A model generated the notes under the pieces. It saw only the letters and a list, made by a program, of their open reading frames with translations. It was not told the origin of the DNA and ran no database searches. The position numbers and the translations under genes are program-made. Of a DNA stretch of 5,635 nucleotides, positions 1 through 5,635 are shown in pieces; the first letter of the stretch is position 1, and the number at the start of each line of letters is the position of its first letter. Origin of the DNA: a virus; the IMG/VR virus record IMGVR_UViG_3300045988_000272, positions 1-5,635 of that record. One strand, written 5' to 3'.

Positions 1-744
1 CACGTACCAACACAGGACACGGAAACAGGCGAAATCTATAAAGGCGGCATAAACATCTGGAAAGGCGTCTCAGAGCGTCCAAGAACAGCGCAAACTCTAA
101 GCGTAGAGGATACCCAACTATTTATAAAGAGGCTAAGAAAGGCCGTCAAAGAGCCTCTGAGATACTTTTTAGCGGGAGAGTACGGAGACAACACAGCGAG
201 ACCACACTATCACATGATACTATATGGATGGCATCCGGACGACTTAAAACCAATCCACAAACTATCAAGACACGGGCATTATACAAGCGATAAGCTAATA
301 AAAATCTGGGGACAAGGTGCAGTTGACATAGCGCAAGCAACACCAGAAACATATAATTATGTTGCAGGGTATGTAACCAAAAAACTGTATGGCAACGACA
401 AAGAGCGTTACCAAAAAATGGGTTTAATACCACCATTTTGCACCATGAGCCGGAAACCGGGACTTGGAGATAAGTGGTTTGAGGACAACCAAGAACGACT
501 CTGGCAGCAGGGGTACATACAGCTTACCAACGGCAAGAGAGCAGCCATACCAGAATACTACTGGAGAAAGCTGGAAGCTGAAAACCCTGAAAAAGCATGG
601 AGAATCAAGAAGTACCGACAGGAAAAAGCCATAGCGTCCTTAATCGAAAGAAACGCGGAAACCGATAAACCATACGCAGAGCAGCTAAAGGACAAAGAAA
701 CATCTATGTCCAAAAAGATGAGCAAAGCCAAAGGCATATTTTGA
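1..744 (+). CDS. Replication initiation protein (Microviridae VP4 / phiX174 gpA-like HUH rolling-circle endonuclease), 3' portion. It continues from 5261-5635 across the circular junction, and nt 1-99 duplicate 5537-5635.
   Basis: The frame is open from nt 1 to the TGA at 742-744 and is in phase with the ORF starting at 5261 after subtracting the 5536-nt unit. It encodes RCR motif II PHYHMILYGW (nt ~196-225) and motif III YVAGYVTKK with two catalytic Tyr (nt ~358-384). The ORF-track start at 214 is only the first Met in this frame. Confidence 0.9.
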   Translation, partial: HVPTQDTETGEIYKGGINIWKGVSERPRTAQTLSVEDTQLFIKRLRKAVKEPLRYFLAGEYGDNTARPHYHMILYGWHPDDLKPIHKLSRHGHYTSDKLIKIWGQGAVDIAQATPETYNYVAGYVTKKLYGNDKERYQKMGLIPPFCTMSRKPGLGDKWFEDNQERLWQQGYIQLTNGKRAAIPEYYWRKLEAENPEKAWRIKKYRQEKAIASLIERNAETDKPYAEQLKDKETSMSKKMSKAKGIF

Positions 745-756
745 CACGTGGTGTCA
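742..756 (+). other. Short hairpin TGACAC-gtg-GTGTCA overlapping the Rep stop codon; contains a CACGTG palindrome.
   Basis: 6-bp inverted repeat at 742-747 / 751-756 with a 3-nt loop. Confidence 0.4.
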
Positions 757-758
757 CT

Positions 759-806
759 CCGCCAAGTAACTATCAAGTAAGACTACTTGGCGGAATGTTT
801 TGTTTT
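759..806 (+). terminator. Rho-independent terminator downstream of Rep, at the end of the VP1-VP2-VP4 transcription unit.
   Basis: Perfect 10-bp stem CCGCCAAGTA (759-768) / TACTTGGCGG (784-793) with a 15-nt loop, followed by the T-rich run aaTGTTTTGTTTT (794-806). Confidence 0.6.
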
Positions 807-812
807 ATATTG

Positions 813-853
813 ACATGCACGTGCGCACACGTAATCGCGCGCACACGCGCATG
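813..853. repeat. Two GC-rich perfectly alternating purine/pyrimidine tracts (813-833 and 836-853) that share the 9-mer GCGCACACG (823-831, 839-847) and are bracketed by CATGC (814-818) ... GCATG (849-853).
   Basis: Direct reading shows 21-nt and 18-nt strict Pu/Py alternation of (CG/CA) type, which has Z-DNA or cruciform potential in the double-stranded replicative form. Confidence 0.6.
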
Positions 854-899
854 ATATTATTATTATTTTATTATTAATTTGTTGTAGTCGTAGTAGTAG
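854..899. repeat. 100% A+T microsatellite (TAT/ATT)n at 854-880 followed by a TAG-trinucleotide run (885-899); candidate DNA-unwinding element.
   Basis: The sequence reads tattattattattttattattaattt, then gtTAGtcgTAGTAGTAGg. Confidence 0.6.
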
Positions 900-977
900 G
901 GAGTGTTGAAATGTTGAATACTATGAATTTTTATCCTTGGAACGATATTTTTTGGCTAATTTTAATGTTGATACTTT

Positions 978-986
978 TGTGGATAA
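978..986 (-). promoter_or_regulatory. Perfect DnaA box (TTATCCACA on the minus strand; TGTGGATAA on the plus strand).
   Basis: 9/9 match to the bacterial DnaA-box consensus TTATNCACA. A second, 8/9 copy (TGTGGAAAA, 1042-1050) sits at the equivalent position of the second repeat unit. Confidence 0.5.
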
Positions 987-1015
987 CTTGTTAAAATGTT
1001 GAAAATGTAGCAATA

Positions 1016-1035
1016 TGCACAAAAACCTTTGTGCA
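1016..1035. other. Perfect hairpin TGCACAAA-aacc-TTTGTGCA lying between the two iteron/DnaA-box repeat units.
   Basis: 8-bp inverted repeat (1016-1023 / 1028-1035) with a 4-nt loop. Confidence 0.55.
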
Positions 1036-1120
1036 ACATTTTGTGGAAAACCTGTTGAAAGTGTTGAAAGTGTTGAAAAAGCAAATAAAGGCCGTCCGGC
1101 GAGCGAAACCGAAAAGTTGC

Positions 1121-1160
1121 GTCATGCTCTTCGCACGGCGCACCGCGCCTACCGCATGAC
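1121..1160. other. GC-rich nested hairpin: outer stem GTCATGC (1121-1127) / GCATGAC (1154-1160), inner stem GGCGC (1137-1141) / GCGCC (1145-1149) with loop ACC. Candidate single-strand initiation (complementary-strand origin) structure.
   Basis: Inverted repeats read directly. This is the only strongly GC-rich island in an otherwise AT-rich noncoding region. Confidence 0.45.
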
Positions 1161-1216
1161 CTAAAATAAAAAGTTTCAGAAAAACTCTTGACAAATCGAA
1201 AGAACTGTGGAACAAT
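1161..1216 (+). promoter_or_regulatory. Sigma70-type promoter for the small-ORF cluster. It has an A-rich UP-like tract (1161-1187), a -35 TTGACA (1188-1193), a 17-nt spacer and an extended -10 TGgAACAAT (1208-1216).
   Basis: The -35 is a perfect consensus, the spacing is optimal and a TG motif precedes a 4/6 -10. The predicted TSS at ~1223 sits just upstream of the SD AAAGGGGG (1226-1235) and the ATG at 1242. Confidence 0.5.
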
Positions 1217-1241
1217 ACAGATAAAGAAAGGGGGTATAGAG

Positions 1242-1421
1242 ATGAATACCATCAATCGTCTGAGTGTCAAAGCCTTAAGGGAGCTAGAAGAAATCGGCTC
1301 CTACGATACCGCAAAATACAGATACGTTATTAACCGGAGCAATGGAAGATGCTACCGCATCAATAAAGAGCTGCTAGGGACAACGGAAACACTCGACCCG
1401 GAAAATTGGGTGGAGCAATAA
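1242..1421 (+). CDS. Hypothetical small protein (59 aa, hydrophilic, no TM segment).
   Basis: ATG at 1242 lies 6 nt after the SD AAAGGGGG and is the first ATG after the predicted promoter. The ORF-track start at 1188 is a TTG inside the -35 box. The ORF is followed by a candidate terminator. Confidence 0.45.
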   Translation: MNTINRLSVKALRELEEIGSYDTAKYRYVINRSNGRCYRINKELLGTTETLDPENWVEQ

Positions 1422-1433
1422 CAAGGTTAAACA

Positions 1434-1452
1434 GCACAAAAGTGCTTTTTTA
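1434..1452 (+). terminator. Weak candidate intrinsic terminator or attenuator (AGCAC-aaaa-GTGCT followed by T6).
   Basis: A 5-bp stem and 4-nt loop followed by TTTTTT, 13 nt after the stop codon of the 1242-1421 ORF. Confidence 0.3.
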
Positions 1453-1494
1453 CAAAACCATTTATACAAAATAATTTTTTAGGAGGTGTTTACT

Positions 1495-1599
1495 CTGACT
1501 CTCAAGGAAATTAACGCGCTGTTTAACAACATACGCAAGATCTTAGCCATGCTGGATAAGATTTACCACGCAGTAGAGGGCAACAAGCCCGAGGAGTAA
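1495..1599 (+). CDS. Possible non-canonically initiated (CTG) small ORF, 34 codons (LTLKEINALFNNIRKILAMLDKIYHAVEGNKPEE), amphipathic helical peptide.
   Basis: A very strong SD AGGAGGTG (1481-1488) has no ATG/GTG/TTG within range. The only open frame downstream begins at CTG 1495 (8-nt spacing) and ends at TAA 1597-1599, 4 nt before the GTG start of the next gene. Confidence 0.25.
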   Translation: MTLKEINALFNNIRKILAMLDKIYHAVEGNKPEE

Positions 1600-1603
1600 C
1601 CAA

Positions 1604-1825
1604 GTGAAAACATGGAACGTACGAGACCAGACCGATACGAACCTCATGCAGGAACTGACGCGAACCTACAAGGAAATCGACGGCGCGTACAAACTGCTAC
1701 GACAGGCCGCAAAGTACGACGACGCAAAATTTTACCTTGACATGGCATTTCGCAAAAAGGCAAAAGCAACGGAAATTGAGGTGGAAATCCTCAGGAGAGA
1801 AATCAACAATGAGAAAGAGGAGTAA
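1604..1825 (+). CDS. Hypothetical small helical protein (73 aa, mixed charge, no TM).
   Basis: GTG start at 1604 with SD GAGGAG at 1591-1596 (7-nt spacing). The 3' end overlaps the SD and start of the basic-protein gene in another frame. Confidence 0.5.
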   Translation: MKTWNVRDQTDTNLMQELTRTYKEIDGAYKLLRQAAKYDDAKFYLDMAFRKKAKATEIEVEILRREINNEKEE

Positions 1826-1928
1826 AGTCCGCAAATCCAAAGACGCAAAGATCTACAACAAAACCGCACGAAAGACCAAAGCAATCAACCTTGGTAGCGG
1901 CGCAATGCGAGGAGGTATCCGGCTGTGA
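1809..1928 (+). CDS. Small highly basic DNA-binding/packaging protein (39 aa; analogue of phiX174 J / gokushovirus ORF8).
   Basis: ATG at 1809 is preceded by AGGAGAG (1793-1799). The product MRKRSKVRKSKDAKIYNKTARKTKAINLGSGAMRGGIRL is about 40% Lys/Arg. Its size and composition match the microvirus DNA-condensing proteins. The TTG at 1737 given by the ORF track is unlikely to be the start. Confidence 0.5.
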   Translation: MRKRSKVRKSKDAKIYNKTARKTKAINLGSGAMRGGIRL

Positions 1929-2167
1929 ACACCAATGTATATGGCATTTTCGACAACTGCGTAATGGGCTATATCACGATCTTTACCGAAAGAGATGACA
2001 AAGTCGCCGAGCGCAATTTTAAAATTGCGCTGACCGACGAACACAACATCATGAGCAAGACGCCAAGCGACTACAGACTGGTACGGCTTGCGAGGTTCGA
2101 CGAAAAAACTGGCCTTTTTGAAGAAGCAAAGGAGAACATTTACGATGGCATTTCGCTCAGTAAGTAA
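1925..2167 (+). CDS. Hypothetical protein (80 aa), possibly the VP5-like (phiX174 C-like) small non-structural protein by position.
   Basis: GTG start at 1925 with a perfect AGGAGG SD (1909-1914, 10-nt spacing). The start overlaps the upstream stop as GTGA. The functional assignment is positional only. Confidence 0.4.
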   Translation: MNTNVYGIFDNCVMGYITIFTERDDKVAERNFKIALTDEHNIMSKTPSDYRLVRLARFDEKTGLFEEAKENIYDGISLSK

Positions 2168-2633
2168 TTTCCGCGAAACCGCAACGGCAAAACCAACCGA
2201 AGCTGGGGAAAGCGTAAGGCGCACATACCTTTGGGAACGCAACGAAAAAGGCGAAAAGATCCTGAAGCTCGACCAGATAATCGACCAACAGGCCGAAATT
2301 GACAGCTACCTTGAAGAAACCAAGCTGGAAAACATCATCCGGCGAGCAAGCATCGACCCGGACATCGCAGCACGAATCGCGCCAGACCTCGGCGGCGGCA
2401 TCCAAGACTTTACCGAGGCACCGCAGACACTGGCAGAACTCCAAAGCATCATGCTGAGAGCGGAACAGATCTGGGAAGAAGTACCCAAGGAAATTAAACT
2501 CAAGTTCGACAACGACGTCGATAAGTTCATCTCGAGTTACGGGACAATCGAATGGGCGAAAAATCTAGGCATTCTGGAAGAAAAGCCGAAAGCCGAGCCT
2601 AACACAGAAGAAAAACCGGAGGCCAAAGAGTGA
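2145..2633 (+). CDS. Putative internal scaffolding protein (VP3-like), 162 aa, acidic C-terminus.
   Basis: ATG at 2145 with SD AAGGAG (2129-2134, 10-nt spacing). It lies immediately upstream of VP1 and is translationally coupled to it (GTGA at 2630-2633). Its size and position fit gokushovirus VP3, but I cannot verify sequence-level homology. The TTG at 2088 in the ORF track is unlikely to be the start. Confidence 0.4.
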   Translation: MAFRSVSNFRETATAKPTEAGESVRRTYLWERNEKGEKILKLDQIIDQQAEIDSYLEETKLENIIRRASIDPDIAARIAPDLGGGIQDFTEAPQTLAELQSIMLRAEQIWEEVPKEIKLKFDNDVDKFISSYGTIEWAKNLGILEEKPKAEPNTEEKPEAKE

Positions 2634-4336
2634 ACAGAAACAAAGACGCAGGATTTAACCAAGTCCCACGCTTGGACATCACGCGAAGTCGCTTCAAGCG
2701 GCGGCAGGACGTAAAGCTAACCATGAACGCAGGACAGCTAATCCCATTTTATGTGGATGAAGTGTTACCGGGCGATACTTTTAGCGTCGACCAAGCGGCG
2801 ATTATCCGAATGACAACGCCTATTTTCCCGGTCATGGATAACTGCTACATGGACGTTTACTACTTTAACGTCCCGTGCCGTATCCTGTGGGAACACTTCA
2901 AACGGTTTATGGGCGAAAACGACACTGGTCCATGGGTACAAAAGCAGGAGTACACAATTCCGCAAGTTAAAATAGTCGGCACAGCAGAAAAACCCGCACC
3001 TTATGAAGGCAGCATCCTAGACTACATGGGCATCCCGACCAAGATAAGCAAGGGCGAAAGCACGGCGTTCACGGTCAACGCGCTGCCAATGCGGGCGTAT
3101 GCTATGATTTGGCAGGAATGGTTCAGAGACCAAAACGTGGACAATCCGGCTATTAACAGCACGGCGGACGCAACTGTAAACTATAAGGACGACGAGAGTA
3201 AGGGCATGGACGCGGCAAAGCCAGACTTAGAGTACATTCTCCAAAACGCATACACCGGCGGCAGACCACTGCCGGTAAACAAATTTCACGACTACTTTAC
3301 AAGCGCACTCCCAAGTCCGCAGAAAGCAGGAGAACCCGTAACCATCCCGCTGACTGGCAACGCACCTGTAAAAGCATACTCAGACAACGGAAATACACTG
3401 GACAGTGAAGAAATATACTTCAGATCATGGAATGCGGCAGGAGAAACAAAATATGCAACCGGCCGCAACGGCTTCAAAACCTCAGAAGGGTACAGACTGC
3501 GCGGAGCAGACTCAGAAGCAACACTAGGAGAAGTAGTAGGAAAAAACCATAACCTATATGCAGACATATCGGAAGTACAAGCAACCACTATCAACCAGCT
3601 GCGTCAAGCCTTCCAGGTGCAAAAGTACTACGAAGAACTTGCGCGCGGCGGCAGCAGATACCGTGAAATGATTTATTCGCTGTTTCATACCAAAATCAGC
3701 GATAAAACGGTACAAATCCCGGAATATCTGGGCGGTACGCGCATCACCATAAACATGAGCCAAGTCATCCAAACCAGCGGCACAACCGACGAAAGTCCGC
3801 AGGGCAACACAGCAGCAGTGAGCGTTACGCCGTACAACGGCAGTATGTTTACCAAGAGTTTCGAGGAACACGGCTTTGTTATCGGTGTATGCTGCATCCG
3901 GCATGACCATACTTACCAGCAGGGACTCGAACGGATGTGGAGTCGTAAAACCAATCTGGATTTCTATTACCCTGTCTTTGCAAATCTGGGAGAACAAGCC
4001 ATTCTTAAAAAGGAGCTGTATCTGACTGGTACAAGCACCGACGAACAGGCATTTGGCTACCAAGAGGCGTGGGCAGAATACCGCATGAAACCTAACAGAA
4101 TCAGCGGCAAATTCCGGAGCAACGCAACGGGCACTCTGGATAGATGGCACTATGGAGACAACTATAAGGAAACGCCAAGCTTAAGTCAAGCATGGATGAA
4201 AGAAGGAGACTCTGAAATCCAGCGAACTCTCGCAGTGGACAACGAACCTCAATTTATCATGGACACGATCATTGACAACACCAGCGTCAGACCGATGCCC
4301 ATGTACAGCATTCCGGGGCTCGTAGATCATCACTAA
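2630..4336 (+). CDS. Major capsid protein VP1 (Microviridae F-like capsid, gokushovirus type), 568 aa.
   Basis: The N-terminus FNQVPRLDITRSRFKRRQDVKLTMNAGQLIPFYVDEVLPGDTF and the internal TINQLRQAFQVQKYYEELARGGSRYREMI are hallmark conserved blocks of gokushovirus-type VP1. GTG start at 2630 with SD GGAGG (2618-2622). Confidence 0.92.
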   Translation: MNRNKDAGFNQVPRLDITRSRFKRRQDVKLTMNAGQLIPFYVDEVLPGDTFSVDQAAIIRMTTPIFPVMDNCYMDVYYFNVPCRILWEHFKRFMGENDTGPWVQKQEYTIPQVKIVGTAEKPAPYEGSILDYMGIPTKISKGESTAFTVNALPMRAYAMIWQEWFRDQNVDNPAINSTADATVNYKDDESKGMDAAKPDLEYILQNAYTGGRPLPVNKFHDYFTSALPSPQKAGEPVTIPLTGNAPVKAYSDNGNTLDSEEIYFRSWNAAGETKYATGRNGFKTSEGYRLRGADSEATLGEVVGKNHNLYADISEVQATTINQLRQAFQVQKYYEELARGGSRYREMIYSLFHTKISDKTVQIPEYLGGTRITINMSQVIQTSGTTDESPQGNTAAVSVTPYNGSMFTKSFEEHGFVIGVCCIRHDHTYQQGLERMWSRKTNLDFYYPVFANLGEQAILKKELYLTGTSTDEQAFGYQEAWAEYRMKPNRISGKFRSNATGTLDRWHYGDNYKETPSLSQAWMKEGDSEIQRTLAVDNEPQFIMDTIIDNTSVRPMPMYSIPGLVDHH

Positions 4337-4352
4337 AAACGAAAGGGGGAAA

Positions 4353-4381
4353 GCCCGGGGCAATACCCCGGGCATATTTTT
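4353..4381 (+). terminator. Very stable all-GC hairpin (GCCCGGGG-caata-CCCCGGGC) plus T5, immediately abutting the VP2 ATG. Candidate partial terminator or attenuator between VP1 and VP2.
   Basis: 8-bp all-GC stem (4353-4360 / 4366-4373), 5-nt loop, then ataTTTTT (4374-4381). VP2 starts at 4382 with no SD. Confidence 0.55.
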
Positions 4382-5260
4382 ATGGGTTTTTTAACAACAT
4401 TCGGCTTAGGGCTCCTCAAAGCAGCAGTGCCAAGCTTAATAGGAGCAGCGGCAAATAAACTGTTTGGCACAAGCTCAAGCTACGGACAGCAAGGACAAGC
4501 AAACAGTCAAAGCAGCGGCTCAAGCTGGTCGCAAGGCACAAGCGACAGCGCAAGTTTCAGCAACAGCGGATCAAACGACGCCATAAACCAAAGCATTGCG
4601 GCACTAGCGAATCAGCTAAGCCAAGGCAGTATGGCCGGACAACAAAAATACAATCGCAACTCTATGCTCATGCAAATGGGATACAACACCTTGGGAGCAA
4701 TCCAACAAGGCGTATACAATCACATCGAGCAGCAAACAGCCATGAGCTATAACAGCGCCGAGGCCGCAAAAAACAGAGCATGGCAAGAGCAAATGAGTAA
4801 CACAGCATACCAAAGAGCCGTCGAAGATATGCGAAAAGCAGGGATTAACCCTATCTTAGCATACACGCAAGGCGGCGCAAGCACTCCAAGCGGAGCGCAA
4901 GGAACAATAGGCAGCGCAAGTATGGGCATGGCATCCAGCAGCGCACTGGGAGCAACAGCATTACCGGGCATCAAGCAGGATGGAAGTTGGAGCAGTCATA
5001 GCGAAGCATGGAGCCACGCAGAAAACGCAGCACAGAGCATCCAACAAGCTATCATGTCAAGCAGCTCAAGCCCAGTAAGACTCAAAGGAGACATGGAGGC
5101 CATAGCCGAAACAGCAGCGGAAAACGCAGCCAAGCTGAAAGAAAAATTCGCGGCGTTACCCGTAGCAGACAAAGCAAAGAGAGATCTTGCAGGACAATTA
5201 GAAAATGCAAGAAGATACTTACCCACAGGCTACATGAGTATAAATCCGAGAGGTAAATAA
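4382..5260 (+). CDS. Minor capsid / DNA pilot protein VP2 (292 aa).
   Basis: It sits downstream of VP1. It contains the conserved microvirus VP2 block [22 protein letters not shown], a hydrophobic N-terminus and Gly/Ser/Gln/Ala-rich low-complexity segments typical of pilot proteins. Confidence 0.75.
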
Positions 5261-5635
5261 ATGGGATGCAATAAACCGTTAATCCGGTTTTATGTACCTC
5301 ACGACAGAGAGGCGAGTGGGCGAGTGTACTCACTCGCCTCTTTCAACGAGATACACAAGACCAAAATGACGTACGAAAATTTAATGTACCGCAAAGATGT
5401 AATGTTGATACCATGCGGGCAATGTACCGGGTGCAGACTGCGCAAACGGAAAGATTGGAGCACACGAATGGAGCTAGAAGCATATGGTCATGACAAAGAA
5501 AGCATCTGGTTTATAACACTGACTTATGACGATGACCACGTACCAACACAGGACACGGAAACAGGCGAAATCTATAAAGGCGGCATAAACATCTGGAAAG
5601 GCGTCTCAGAGCGTCCAAGAACAGCGCAAACTCTA
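5261..5635 (+). CDS. Replication initiation protein (VP4 / Rep), 5' portion. Joined with 1-744 it gives a 339-aa protein.
   Basis: ATG at 5261 directly follows the VP2 stop (TAAATG), with a GAGAGG SD at 5248-5253. The N-terminus has the microvirus Rep Cys cluster PCGQCTGCRLRKRKDW and RCR motif I WFITLTYDD at ~5509-5535. An alternative in-frame start at ATG 5366 (MTYENL...) cannot be excluded. Confidence 0.88.
   Translation, partial: MGCNKPLIRFYVPHDREASGRVYSLASFNEIHKTKMTYENLMYRKDVMLIPCGQCTGCRLRKRKDWSTRMELEAYGHDKESIWFITLTYDDDHVPTQDTETGEIYKGGINIWKGVSERPRTAQTL
5308..5341. other. Strong hairpin inside the 5' part of rep: 11-bp perfect inverted repeat AGAGGCGAGTG / CACTCGCCTCT. A tandem copy of GGCGAGTG in the loop allows an alternative 8-bp stem with a TACT loop.
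   Basis: Left arm 5308-5318 and right arm 5331-5341. GGCGAGTG is duplicated at 5311-5318 and 5319-5326. Confidence 0.6.
5537..5635. repeat. Terminal redundancy: 99-nt exact direct repeat of nt 1-99 (signature of a circular genome or circular assembly; unit length 5536 nt).
   Basis: Nt 1-99 and 5537-5635 are identical base for base, and the Rep reading frame is preserved across the junction. Confidence 0.95.

Follow-up and report, generated by a model that had tools for sequence, protein, structure and literature searches.

We analysed a window of 5,635 nucleotides (nt), the whole of positions 1 to 5,635 of the IMG/VR virus record IMGVR_UViG_3300045988_000272, with attention to an array of short direct repeats in its non-coding DNA. 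The window represents a circular gokushovirus genome (5,536 nt) whose ends overlap by 99 nt. All of its genes lie on the plus strand, i.e. small open reading frames (ORFs), VP5 and VP3 (1243-2633), VP1 (2630-4336), VP2 (4382-5260) and VP4, the Rep gene, which starts at 5261 and wraps round to 744. The sole long non-coding stretch extends from 745 to 1242, and the repeat array sits inside it. An identical capsid protein was found on four contigs of ~5.6 kb, at least one of which is labelled human gut metagenome and none of which lies within a larger contig. The ~498-nt gap stayed gene-free in independent gene calls on four identical human-gut contigs. ORF 1015-1164, which runs across the triple box of the array, was considered as a protein-coding sequence and rejected, as the frames split 45/43 in relatives and a PHROG search gave no family match. 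An Rfam scan of the window returned one sub-threshold microRNA match only, and hence no known RNA family. The array is therefore non-coding, as the first-pass annotation of this sequence had held.

The repeat array and the elements to its left

The motif TGTTGAAA is present in five exact copies (904, 997, 1053, 1062 and 1071), all on the plus strand and none elsewhere in the window. The expected number in the window is 0.28, and none of 200 shuffled sequences reached five copies. Four further copies with one mismatch (912, 966, 989 and 1042) are also on the plus strand and within 904-1078, and the degenerate box TGTKGAWA has nine matches, eight of them within 904-1078, compared to 0.73 expected. 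Tandem Repeats Finder described 1053-1078 as a repeat of period 9 with 2.9 copies and 100% match. Longer units occupy 975-996 and 1039-1060; they are 22 nt each with 86% identity, and further boxes follow each of them. These counts bear out the first-pass description of a dense direct-repeat array with a perfect three-copy 9-nt tandem; the two longer units that it had put at ~33 nt are real but shorter.

The array contains a total of ten boxes, a pair at 904-920 and eight more in the same direction between 966 and 1079. The first pair consists of the abutting boxes TGTTGAAA (904-911) and TGTTGAATA (912-920) on the plus strand. A middle cluster on the same strand (966-1005) contains TGTTGATA (966), TGTGGATAA (978), TGTTAAAA (989) and TGTTGAAAA (997), of which TGTGGATAA is the reverse complement of the perfect canonical DnaA box TTATCCACA. 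The distal cluster, likewise on the plus strand (1042-1079), starts with TGTGGAAAA (1042) and continues with TGTTGAAAG, TGTTGAAAG and TGTTGAAAA as a perfect 9-nt tandem (1053-1079). Between the middle and distal clusters, inverted-repeat evidence identified a dyad or hairpin, TGCACAAA-N4-TTTGTGCA (1016-1035).

Three additional elements were found on the plus strand immediately to the left of the array. An AT-rich tract at 851-884, a candidate DNA unwinding element, has 29 A/T residues out of 30 over 851-880 and ends in the phage-specific 9-mer AATTTGTTG (876-884), which reads AACTTGTTG in most relatives. It is followed by a run of DnaA-trios, TAG TCG TAG TAG TAG (885-899), which reads GAT GAT GAT GCT GAT in the 3'-to-5' direction. 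A G-rich 4-nt spacer, GGAG (900-903), separates the trios from the first box; the pair at 904-920 points toward the trios, and its distal box begins 12 nt from them. The first-pass interval, 902-1079, took in the array but missed the AT-rich tract and trios (851-903), and the functional unit appears to start at ~851.

The basal unwinding system of bacterial origins, which was defined in B. subtilis and is predicted for most bacteria, consists in order of tandem DnaA boxes, a short GC-rich spacer, DnaA-trios and an AT-rich tract, and DnaA-ATP oligomerises on the trios to open the duplex (PMC8287927). In that system a box, commonly one of a tandem pair, has at most two mismatches to the species consensus. 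The better box lies at most 16 base pairs (bp) from the first trio across a GC-rich gap that averages 4 bp, and at least three consecutive NAN trios are present, with a 3'-GAT-5' consensus and with strand and side fixed by box polarity (PMC8287927). In the window, 904-911 is an exact match to the box core that predominates in origins of the bacterial order Oscillospirales and 912-920 differs by one mismatch from the host 9-mer TGTTGAAAA. The spacer, GGAG, is 4 nt long, TAG TAG TAG occupies 891-899 with another TAG at 885-887, and AT-rich DNA lies beyond the trios at 851-880. The phage module is the same as the bacterial system in its parts, their order, their polarity and their spacing. A chromosomal oriC is typically found beside dnaA/dnaN, whereas this module lies between VP4 and the small phage ORFs. 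Judged by its sequence, the module would work like the core of a chromosomal origin, but it is not a chromosomal oriC.

Conservation of the module among gokushoviruses

Relatives of the window were compared by parsing 128 modules for their grammar and by aligning 94 distinct modules. The module was present in every complete genome of the clade that was sampled; these number more than 140, and their capsid identity goes down to ~41%. The non-coding region has matches in 59 records of GenBank phages. For ten divergent gokushoviruses from GenBank, the non-coding block is the only part that matches the window, mostly at ~964-1079 with 77-87% identity, indicating that its conservation exceeds that of the genes. 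Each of thirteen fetched relatives contains three to eight exact copies of TGTTGAAA, always on one strand but variable in number and spacing. A scan of viral contigs with the triple-box pattern gave, among the 120 matches listed, ~80 gokushoviruses whose capsid identity to the window is 41-87%. In a second sample, chosen by capsid protein and not by motif, 61 of 67 new genomes contained the module, and the six that did not were contigs without circular overlap. The module was absent from eight outgroup gokushoviruses (capsid identity 32-49%), including Chlamydia phage Chp2. Comparison of the intergenic regions of relatives, which the first-pass annotation had proposed as a check, thus found the motif conserved and not scrambled.

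In the 94-module alignment, the trios, every box and positions 873-884 are at least 90% conserved, which is not the case for 1080-1210. Column conservation of the middle cluster (966-1005) reached ~99%, and these modules had not been chosen by the boxes of that cluster. The first box was TGTTGAAA in 69 of the 128 parsed modules, TGTGGAAA in 30 and AGTGGAAA in 14, such that this position alternates among relatives between TGTTGAAA and a canonical-type box (TTTTCCACA, TGTGGAAAA). The strict canonical DnaA box was rejected as the conserved element, as TTATCCACA is confined to the closest relatives. In 24 modules the stem of the dyad at 1016-1035 is kept while its 4-nt loop varies; across all 94 modules, the right arm alone is well conserved. 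Other subclades have TTCGTCA-N3-TGACGAA or AAGTTTT-N4-AAAACTT at this position instead. We also observed that 928-940 (TTTTTATCCTTGG), which is moderately conserved in close relatives, resembles a partial canonical box in reverse orientation (TTATCC...).

The grammar of the left flank is similarly constrained. The trio run conforms to TTG TTG TAG NNG TAG TAG TAG in 124 of the 128 modules, and the 30 nt upstream of it average 71% A+T compared to 54% genome-wide. The gap between the trios and the first box is 4 nt in ~89% of the modules, although its sequence varies (GGAG, GCAA, AGTA, GGGC, AGAC), and over all modules 1039 boxes are in the forward direction and 20 in the reverse. As spacer length is fixed while spacer sequence is variable, and as box direction is strongly biased, we conclude that the module is under a constraint of register and polarity.

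The module is found at two sites in the genome, either after VP4 or between VP2 and VP4, and its orientation to the genes is reversed in one clade as well as in a few other genomes. Folding of 850-1085 as a single strand was no better than that of shuffled sequences (z = +0.22), and in none of the 94 modules was a whole box contained in a hairpin stem; we therefore rejected single-strand structure as its function. The occurrence of both orientations and two positions, together with the lack of a special single-strand fold, suggests that the module functions on the double-stranded replicative form.

Outside the clade, a BLAST search of PLSDB plasmids with 850-1085 gave no match. When viral contigs were scanned for the grammar with canonical boxes (TAGTAGTAG-N1-8-TGTGGATAA), none of the 42 matches was a microvirus module, and the one gokushovirus match was a single box.

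Two tracts that flank the module were also recorded. On the left, between the AT-rich tract and a hairpin at 755-797, the segment 806-850 is a GC-rich alternating purine/pyrimidine tract (TGCACGTGCGCACACG...CGCGCGCACACGCGCATG) containing a direct repeat (820-831 and 836-847). It may be prone to Z-DNA or cruciform formation, and similar CGCGCACGCGCG-like tracts occur in several subclades, not in all. On the right, 1081-1160 is a GC-rich block with an imperfect inverted repeat (arms 1121-1138 and 1143-1160). This block is 82-87% identical in the otherwise unalignable genomes MG945157, MG945135 and KT264798, and it is poorly conserved over all 94 modules.

Host chromosome origins and the neighbouring hairpin

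A scan for the triple motif in one genome per bacterial species gave 58 Clostridia among the 120 matches listed, 45 of which were named Oscillospiraceae, Ruminococcus, Ruminococcaceae or Acutalibacteraceae. At least 13 loci had a dnaA homologue within 8 kb. In two of them (L183 and L206), arrays fill both spacers of rnpA-[boxes]-dnaA-[boxes]-dnaN, with the genes confirmed by Pfam; this is the bipartite origin layout of Firmicutes. At seven Ruminococcus, Oscillospiraceae or Acutalibacteraceae loci, TTTCAACA occurs 18-33 times within 1.3 kb of dnaA, and TTATCCACA is nearly absent. Near-exclusive use of TTTTCAACA over TTATCCACA in the dnaA flanks was seen at L143, L152, L175, L183, L206, L252 and L253.

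The DnaA proteins of the Oscillospirales type differ from those of E. coli and B. subtilis at position 423 (A, V or N for P), position 435 (S for T) and position 439 (Y for H). These three positions are among the DNA-contact positions of DnaA, and differing box specificities have been proposed to result from variation at 435 and 438-439 (PMC5043019). The box and its surroundings had nearly equal base frequencies in 716 phage boxes and 192 host origin boxes; for example, box position 4 is T in 86% and G in 14% in phage modules, compared to 88% and 12% in host origins. From the arrays that flank dnaA, the altered contact residues of DnaA and the matching base frequencies, we conclude that TGTTGAAAA (reverse complement TTTTCAACA) in all likelihood serves as the DnaA box in Oscillospirales, the presumed host order, and that the phage array is correspondingly a predicted cluster of DnaA boxes.

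The resemblance extends beyond the boxes. The dnaA-dnaN spacers of L143, L183, L206 and L253 end in AT-rich-(TAG)4-5-GGGN-box-box with the same polarity as in the phage, and the phage-host alignment is gap-free from the trios through the boxes. The host spacer between trios and boxes is GGGG, GGGC or GGTA, and the box pair is at the same distance from the trios as in the phage. A similarly placed AT-rich tract is found in the host oriC, but without AACTTGTTG. There are also clear differences from a chromosomal origin. The phage module resides in a 5.5-kb single-stranded DNA phage that has its own rolling-circle initiator, and dnaA and dnaN do not adjoin it; its further boxes all point in one direction, whereas boxes in the host spacers occur in both orientations; and it has AACTTGTTG at the trio edge and a Rep-type hairpin 50-240 nt away.

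Several other occurrences of these elements were noted. A second DnaA-like protein, ~42% identical, is encoded beside dnaN in L162, L164, L218, L241 and L249; it has T or I at position 439 and a one-residue deletion before the RDH motif, and five or six such boxes are nearby. The triple-box unit TGTTGAAAacnnTGTTGAAAnTGTTGAAAa, with 12 + 9 nt spacing, recurs at many Oscillospiraceae and Ruminococcus loci. It was found isolated and away from dnaA at L158, L167, L181, L184, L190, L192, L195, L211 and L168, and it lies inside long ORFs in L167 and L211. Arrays of the TGTTGAAA box are also present in a distant phylum, at three loci of Mesoaciditoga, Thermotogota (L159, L194 and L221), and the array at L159 forms a (TAG)3-GTAC-box-box core. 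Finally, five viral-labelled IMG/VR contigs of 28-160 kb (L322, L333, L351, L332 and L359) hold a full canonical module, AT-rich-(TAG)3-5-GGGN-TGTGGATAA, in which a second box follows the first (TGTGGATAA in four of the five) and up to eight boxes are present. It may be that host origins are included in contigs labelled as viral, or that these contigs are large elements whose origin is of the oriC type.

The window contains a stem-loop at 755-797 (arms 755-768 and 784-797, loop 769-783), which immediately follows the stop codon of VP4. On the minus strand, i.e. the strand opposite the genes, its loop reads GTCTTACTTGATAGT and carries a phiX-like nick motif, TACTTGAT (TACTTG|AT), which matches the viral-strand origin annotated in the phiX174 record as AACTTG|ATA. 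A stem of at least 9 bp around CTTGAT was found on the minus strand in 115 of 139 clade genomes and on the plus strand in none. In a control with shuffled 6-mers, 12 of 15 gave no such stem, and the other three overlap the same loop motif. Hairpin stems are unrelated between subclades although the loop is kept, and in the clade with the inverted module the equivalent loop is CTT[AC]CTTGTCTAT, with the strand unchanged. In 108 of 110 genomes, the AT-rich end of the module is the one that faces the hairpin, at a distance of 50-290 nt, and the module may lie to the left or to the right of it. The median distance from the hairpin centre to the trio run is 107 nt, the AT-rich tract and trios intervening.

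As the more probable site of Rep nicking, this hairpin is a better candidate than the array for the site at which VP4 would act. On the plus strand it also looks like a terminator for VP4, and it is a neighbour of the array, not a part of it. The 9-mer at the edge of the AT-rich tract, AATTTGTTG or AACTTGTTG, is not found in the host origin cores and has AACTTG in common with the phiX nick site. This likeness had raised AACTTGTTG (876-884) as a possible Rep nick site, an assignment that became less likely once the TACTTGAT hairpin was known. In Chp2 and three other outgroups, C[CT]ACTTGAT occurs in a hairpin loop on the gene strand. As the motif lies opposite the genes in the clade studied here and on the gene strand in outgroups, it may be the antisense strand that is packaged in this clade, or the hairpin may serve some other purpose. 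We also observed phased A-tract repeats in Chp2 (L368, 2810-2880), consisting of TGTGCAAAAAA twice and then TGCCCAAAAAAA and GGGCCAAAAA, just upstream of the ACTTGAT hairpin; two of these repeats fit a relaxed DnaA-box pattern, TGTGNAWAA.

Possible roles of the module

The comparisons described above establish the anatomy and conservation of the module as well as the constraints on its register, and they show that it matches host origin cores and is independent of strand. The explanation that we favor, and consider reasonably probable, is that the array is the DnaA-box part of an unwinding module of the chromosomal-origin type that would be opened by host DnaA for phage replication. Binding of host DnaA to the array is considerably more secure and we regard it as very likely. 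Host DnaA-ATP would bind the boxes on the double-stranded replicative form, oligomerise head-to-tail onto the trio strand and melt the AT-rich tract. The host helicase and replisome could then be loaded at the open region, and the replicative form would be amplified or maintained by a theta-type mechanism. Alternatively, it could expose the neighbouring Rep hairpin (755-797) for nicking. The first-pass annotation had anticipated an origin-type array of protein-binding direct repeats, which agrees with the match to the chromosomal unwinding module, and it had named host DnaA as a candidate binder, for which the occurrence of the same motif in arrays that flank dnaA in host chromosomes argues.

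In the plasmids pSC101, RK2 (oriV) and F, and in phage P1 (oriR), DnaA boxes beside the origin recruit host DnaA, and these few boxes assist an element-encoded Rep that binds iterons. We know of no trio run described in these origins. The gokushovirus module would have in common with them the recruitment of host DnaA to a mobile element by means of boxes. It differs in that its boxes are the only repeat family and in that the full chromosomal unwinding grammar is present. Dense box clusters outside oriC are also known as datA of E. coli and as six DnaA-box clusters of B. subtilis (PMC3245932); unlike the phage module, they are not associated with a trio run and an AT-rich tract in origin register. 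The A site of the ABC primosome (Masai and Arai, cited in PMC6127211) provides another case of DnaA serving a single-stranded DNA replicon. As far as it is described there, the A site requires a box in a hairpin stem on the packaged strand, an arrangement seen in 0 of 94 phage modules, and it is engineered or plasmid-derived and not a natural feature of microviruses. Compared to the origins of phiX174, geminiviruses and other circular Rep-encoding single-stranded (CRESS) DNA viruses, the repeats correspond to host DnaA boxes instead of Rep iterons specific to the virus, and the strand that bears the nick motif is the one opposite the genes.

Four alternative explanations were weighed against this one. 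The main rival is titration of host DnaA, in which the array would serve as a sponge on the multicopy replicative form with no firing at the site, and would thereby block or retime initiation on the host chromosome or deregulate genes controlled by DnaA. Each genome copy brings ten boxes, host chromosomes carry the triple-box unit at many loci away from dnaA, and box clusters outside oriC negatively regulate initiation in B. subtilis (PMC3245932). Titration would also not need strand polarity, consistent with the two orientations of the module. However, it leaves the near-invariant trios, the fixed 4-nt spacer of variable sequence and the host-like placement of the AT-rich tract unexplained, as well as the facing of the AT-rich end toward the Rep hairpin in 108 of 110 genomes, and we consider it unlikely as the function of the array. 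Less probable again is a DnaA-dependent origin for the complementary strand, in which DnaA bound to a hairpin box or to the trios would assemble a primosome on the packaged single strand. Trios are motifs that are bound in single-stranded DNA, microviruses depend on a priming site of the host for their first strand (PMC9865509), and an M13 strand bearing a one-box hairpin supports DnaA-dependent helicase loading and priming (PMC6127211). The module is poorly suited to such a role: none of 94 modules had a whole box in a hairpin stem, 850-1085 folds with an energy at the level of shuffled sequences (z = +0.22), and orientation varies relative to both the genes and the nick hairpin. With two orientations of the module, the strand packaged in one clade would be the wrong one for an origin of this kind.

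The array might also be a set of operators for another host factor such as Spo0A, or for DnaA itself in repression or activation of a downstream promoter. The Spo0A 0A box, which we take to be TGTCGAA, is one mismatch from TGTTGAA, and promoter-like sites are present at 1188-1216 and, inside the array, at 968-997. Such matches were at the level of chance, two found compared to 1.6 expected, and the last box lies 109 nt upstream of the -35 hexamer at 1188. In addition, the array is located elsewhere relative to the genes in the inverted clade, and both the trio-spacer-box grammar and the arrays flanking dnaA favor DnaA and unwinding over transcription. We consider operator function quite improbable. 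Least credible of all is the iteron explanation, in which VP4 would find its origin through the repeats as do the initiators of plasmids and CRESS DNA viruses, a possibility that the first-pass annotation had put forward. The direct repeats do lie ~107 nt from a nick-type hairpin and beside the rep gene. Nevertheless, the motif is invariant over VP4 proteins of 33-98% identity without co-variation with Rep, a canonical-type DnaA box takes the place of the first box in some relatives, arrays also flank dnaA in bacterial chromosomes that lack VP4, and outgroup gokushoviruses with a homologous Rep lack the array. These results do not support the Rep-iteron proposal.

Several considerations weigh against the explanation that we favor, i.e. 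a DnaA-opened unwinding module. The microvirus encodes its own rolling-circle initiator, and it is not evident why it would require an origin that depends on DnaA. With ~13-30 nt in relatives, the AT-rich tract is short, the uninterrupted trios in the window are the three nearest the boxes, with TCG breaking the run, and a box cluster alone would be enough for a role in DnaA titration. Most of the viral sample was retrieved by the triple-box pattern, a bias that the sample chosen by capsid protein answers. The host assignment rests on metagenome-assembled genomes and one isolate locus, that of Ruminococcus albus (L168), where the boxes are near parB and the fetched stretch does not include dnaA. 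Lastly, binding by DnaA, unwinding and replication from the site are predictions from sequence.

More tentatively, and with less confidence than we attach to the unwinding module itself, we suggest that the clade, which comprises gokushoviruses of human and animal guts, possibly carries a working host-origin core beside its rolling-circle hairpin and thus has a second, DnaA-licensed mode of replication. If true, this mode could be plasmid-like, with theta replication or with persistence coupled to the cell cycle of the host, or it could be DnaA-assisted melting that licenses Rep nicking. The box variant would in that case also identify the uncultured hosts as Oscillospirales. In the open-access literature, we found no article in which DnaA boxes are linked to Microviridae or gokushoviruses, and a literature search on the motif strings returned primer noise only. 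The module would then be, as far as we found, the first natural viral mimic of the box-and-trio unwinding core of oriC. The more than 140 genomes offer natural variants of the box-spacer-trio arrangement, with box swaps and with spacer changes at fixed length, and these variants pair with a DnaA lineage that has changed contact residues and a changed box (TTTTCAACA). The most common phages of the gut include the gokushoviruses; most of these lack a cultured host, and the control of their replication is unstudied. For this large uncultured clade, the module provides a sequence-based prediction of the host (Ruminococcus, Oscillospiraceae, Acutalibacteraceae). If it works as we propose, it would provide a concrete cis element together with a named host protein, DnaA, and a possible route by which a lytic-type single-stranded DNA phage may persist as an episome or couple its replication to the growth state of the host.

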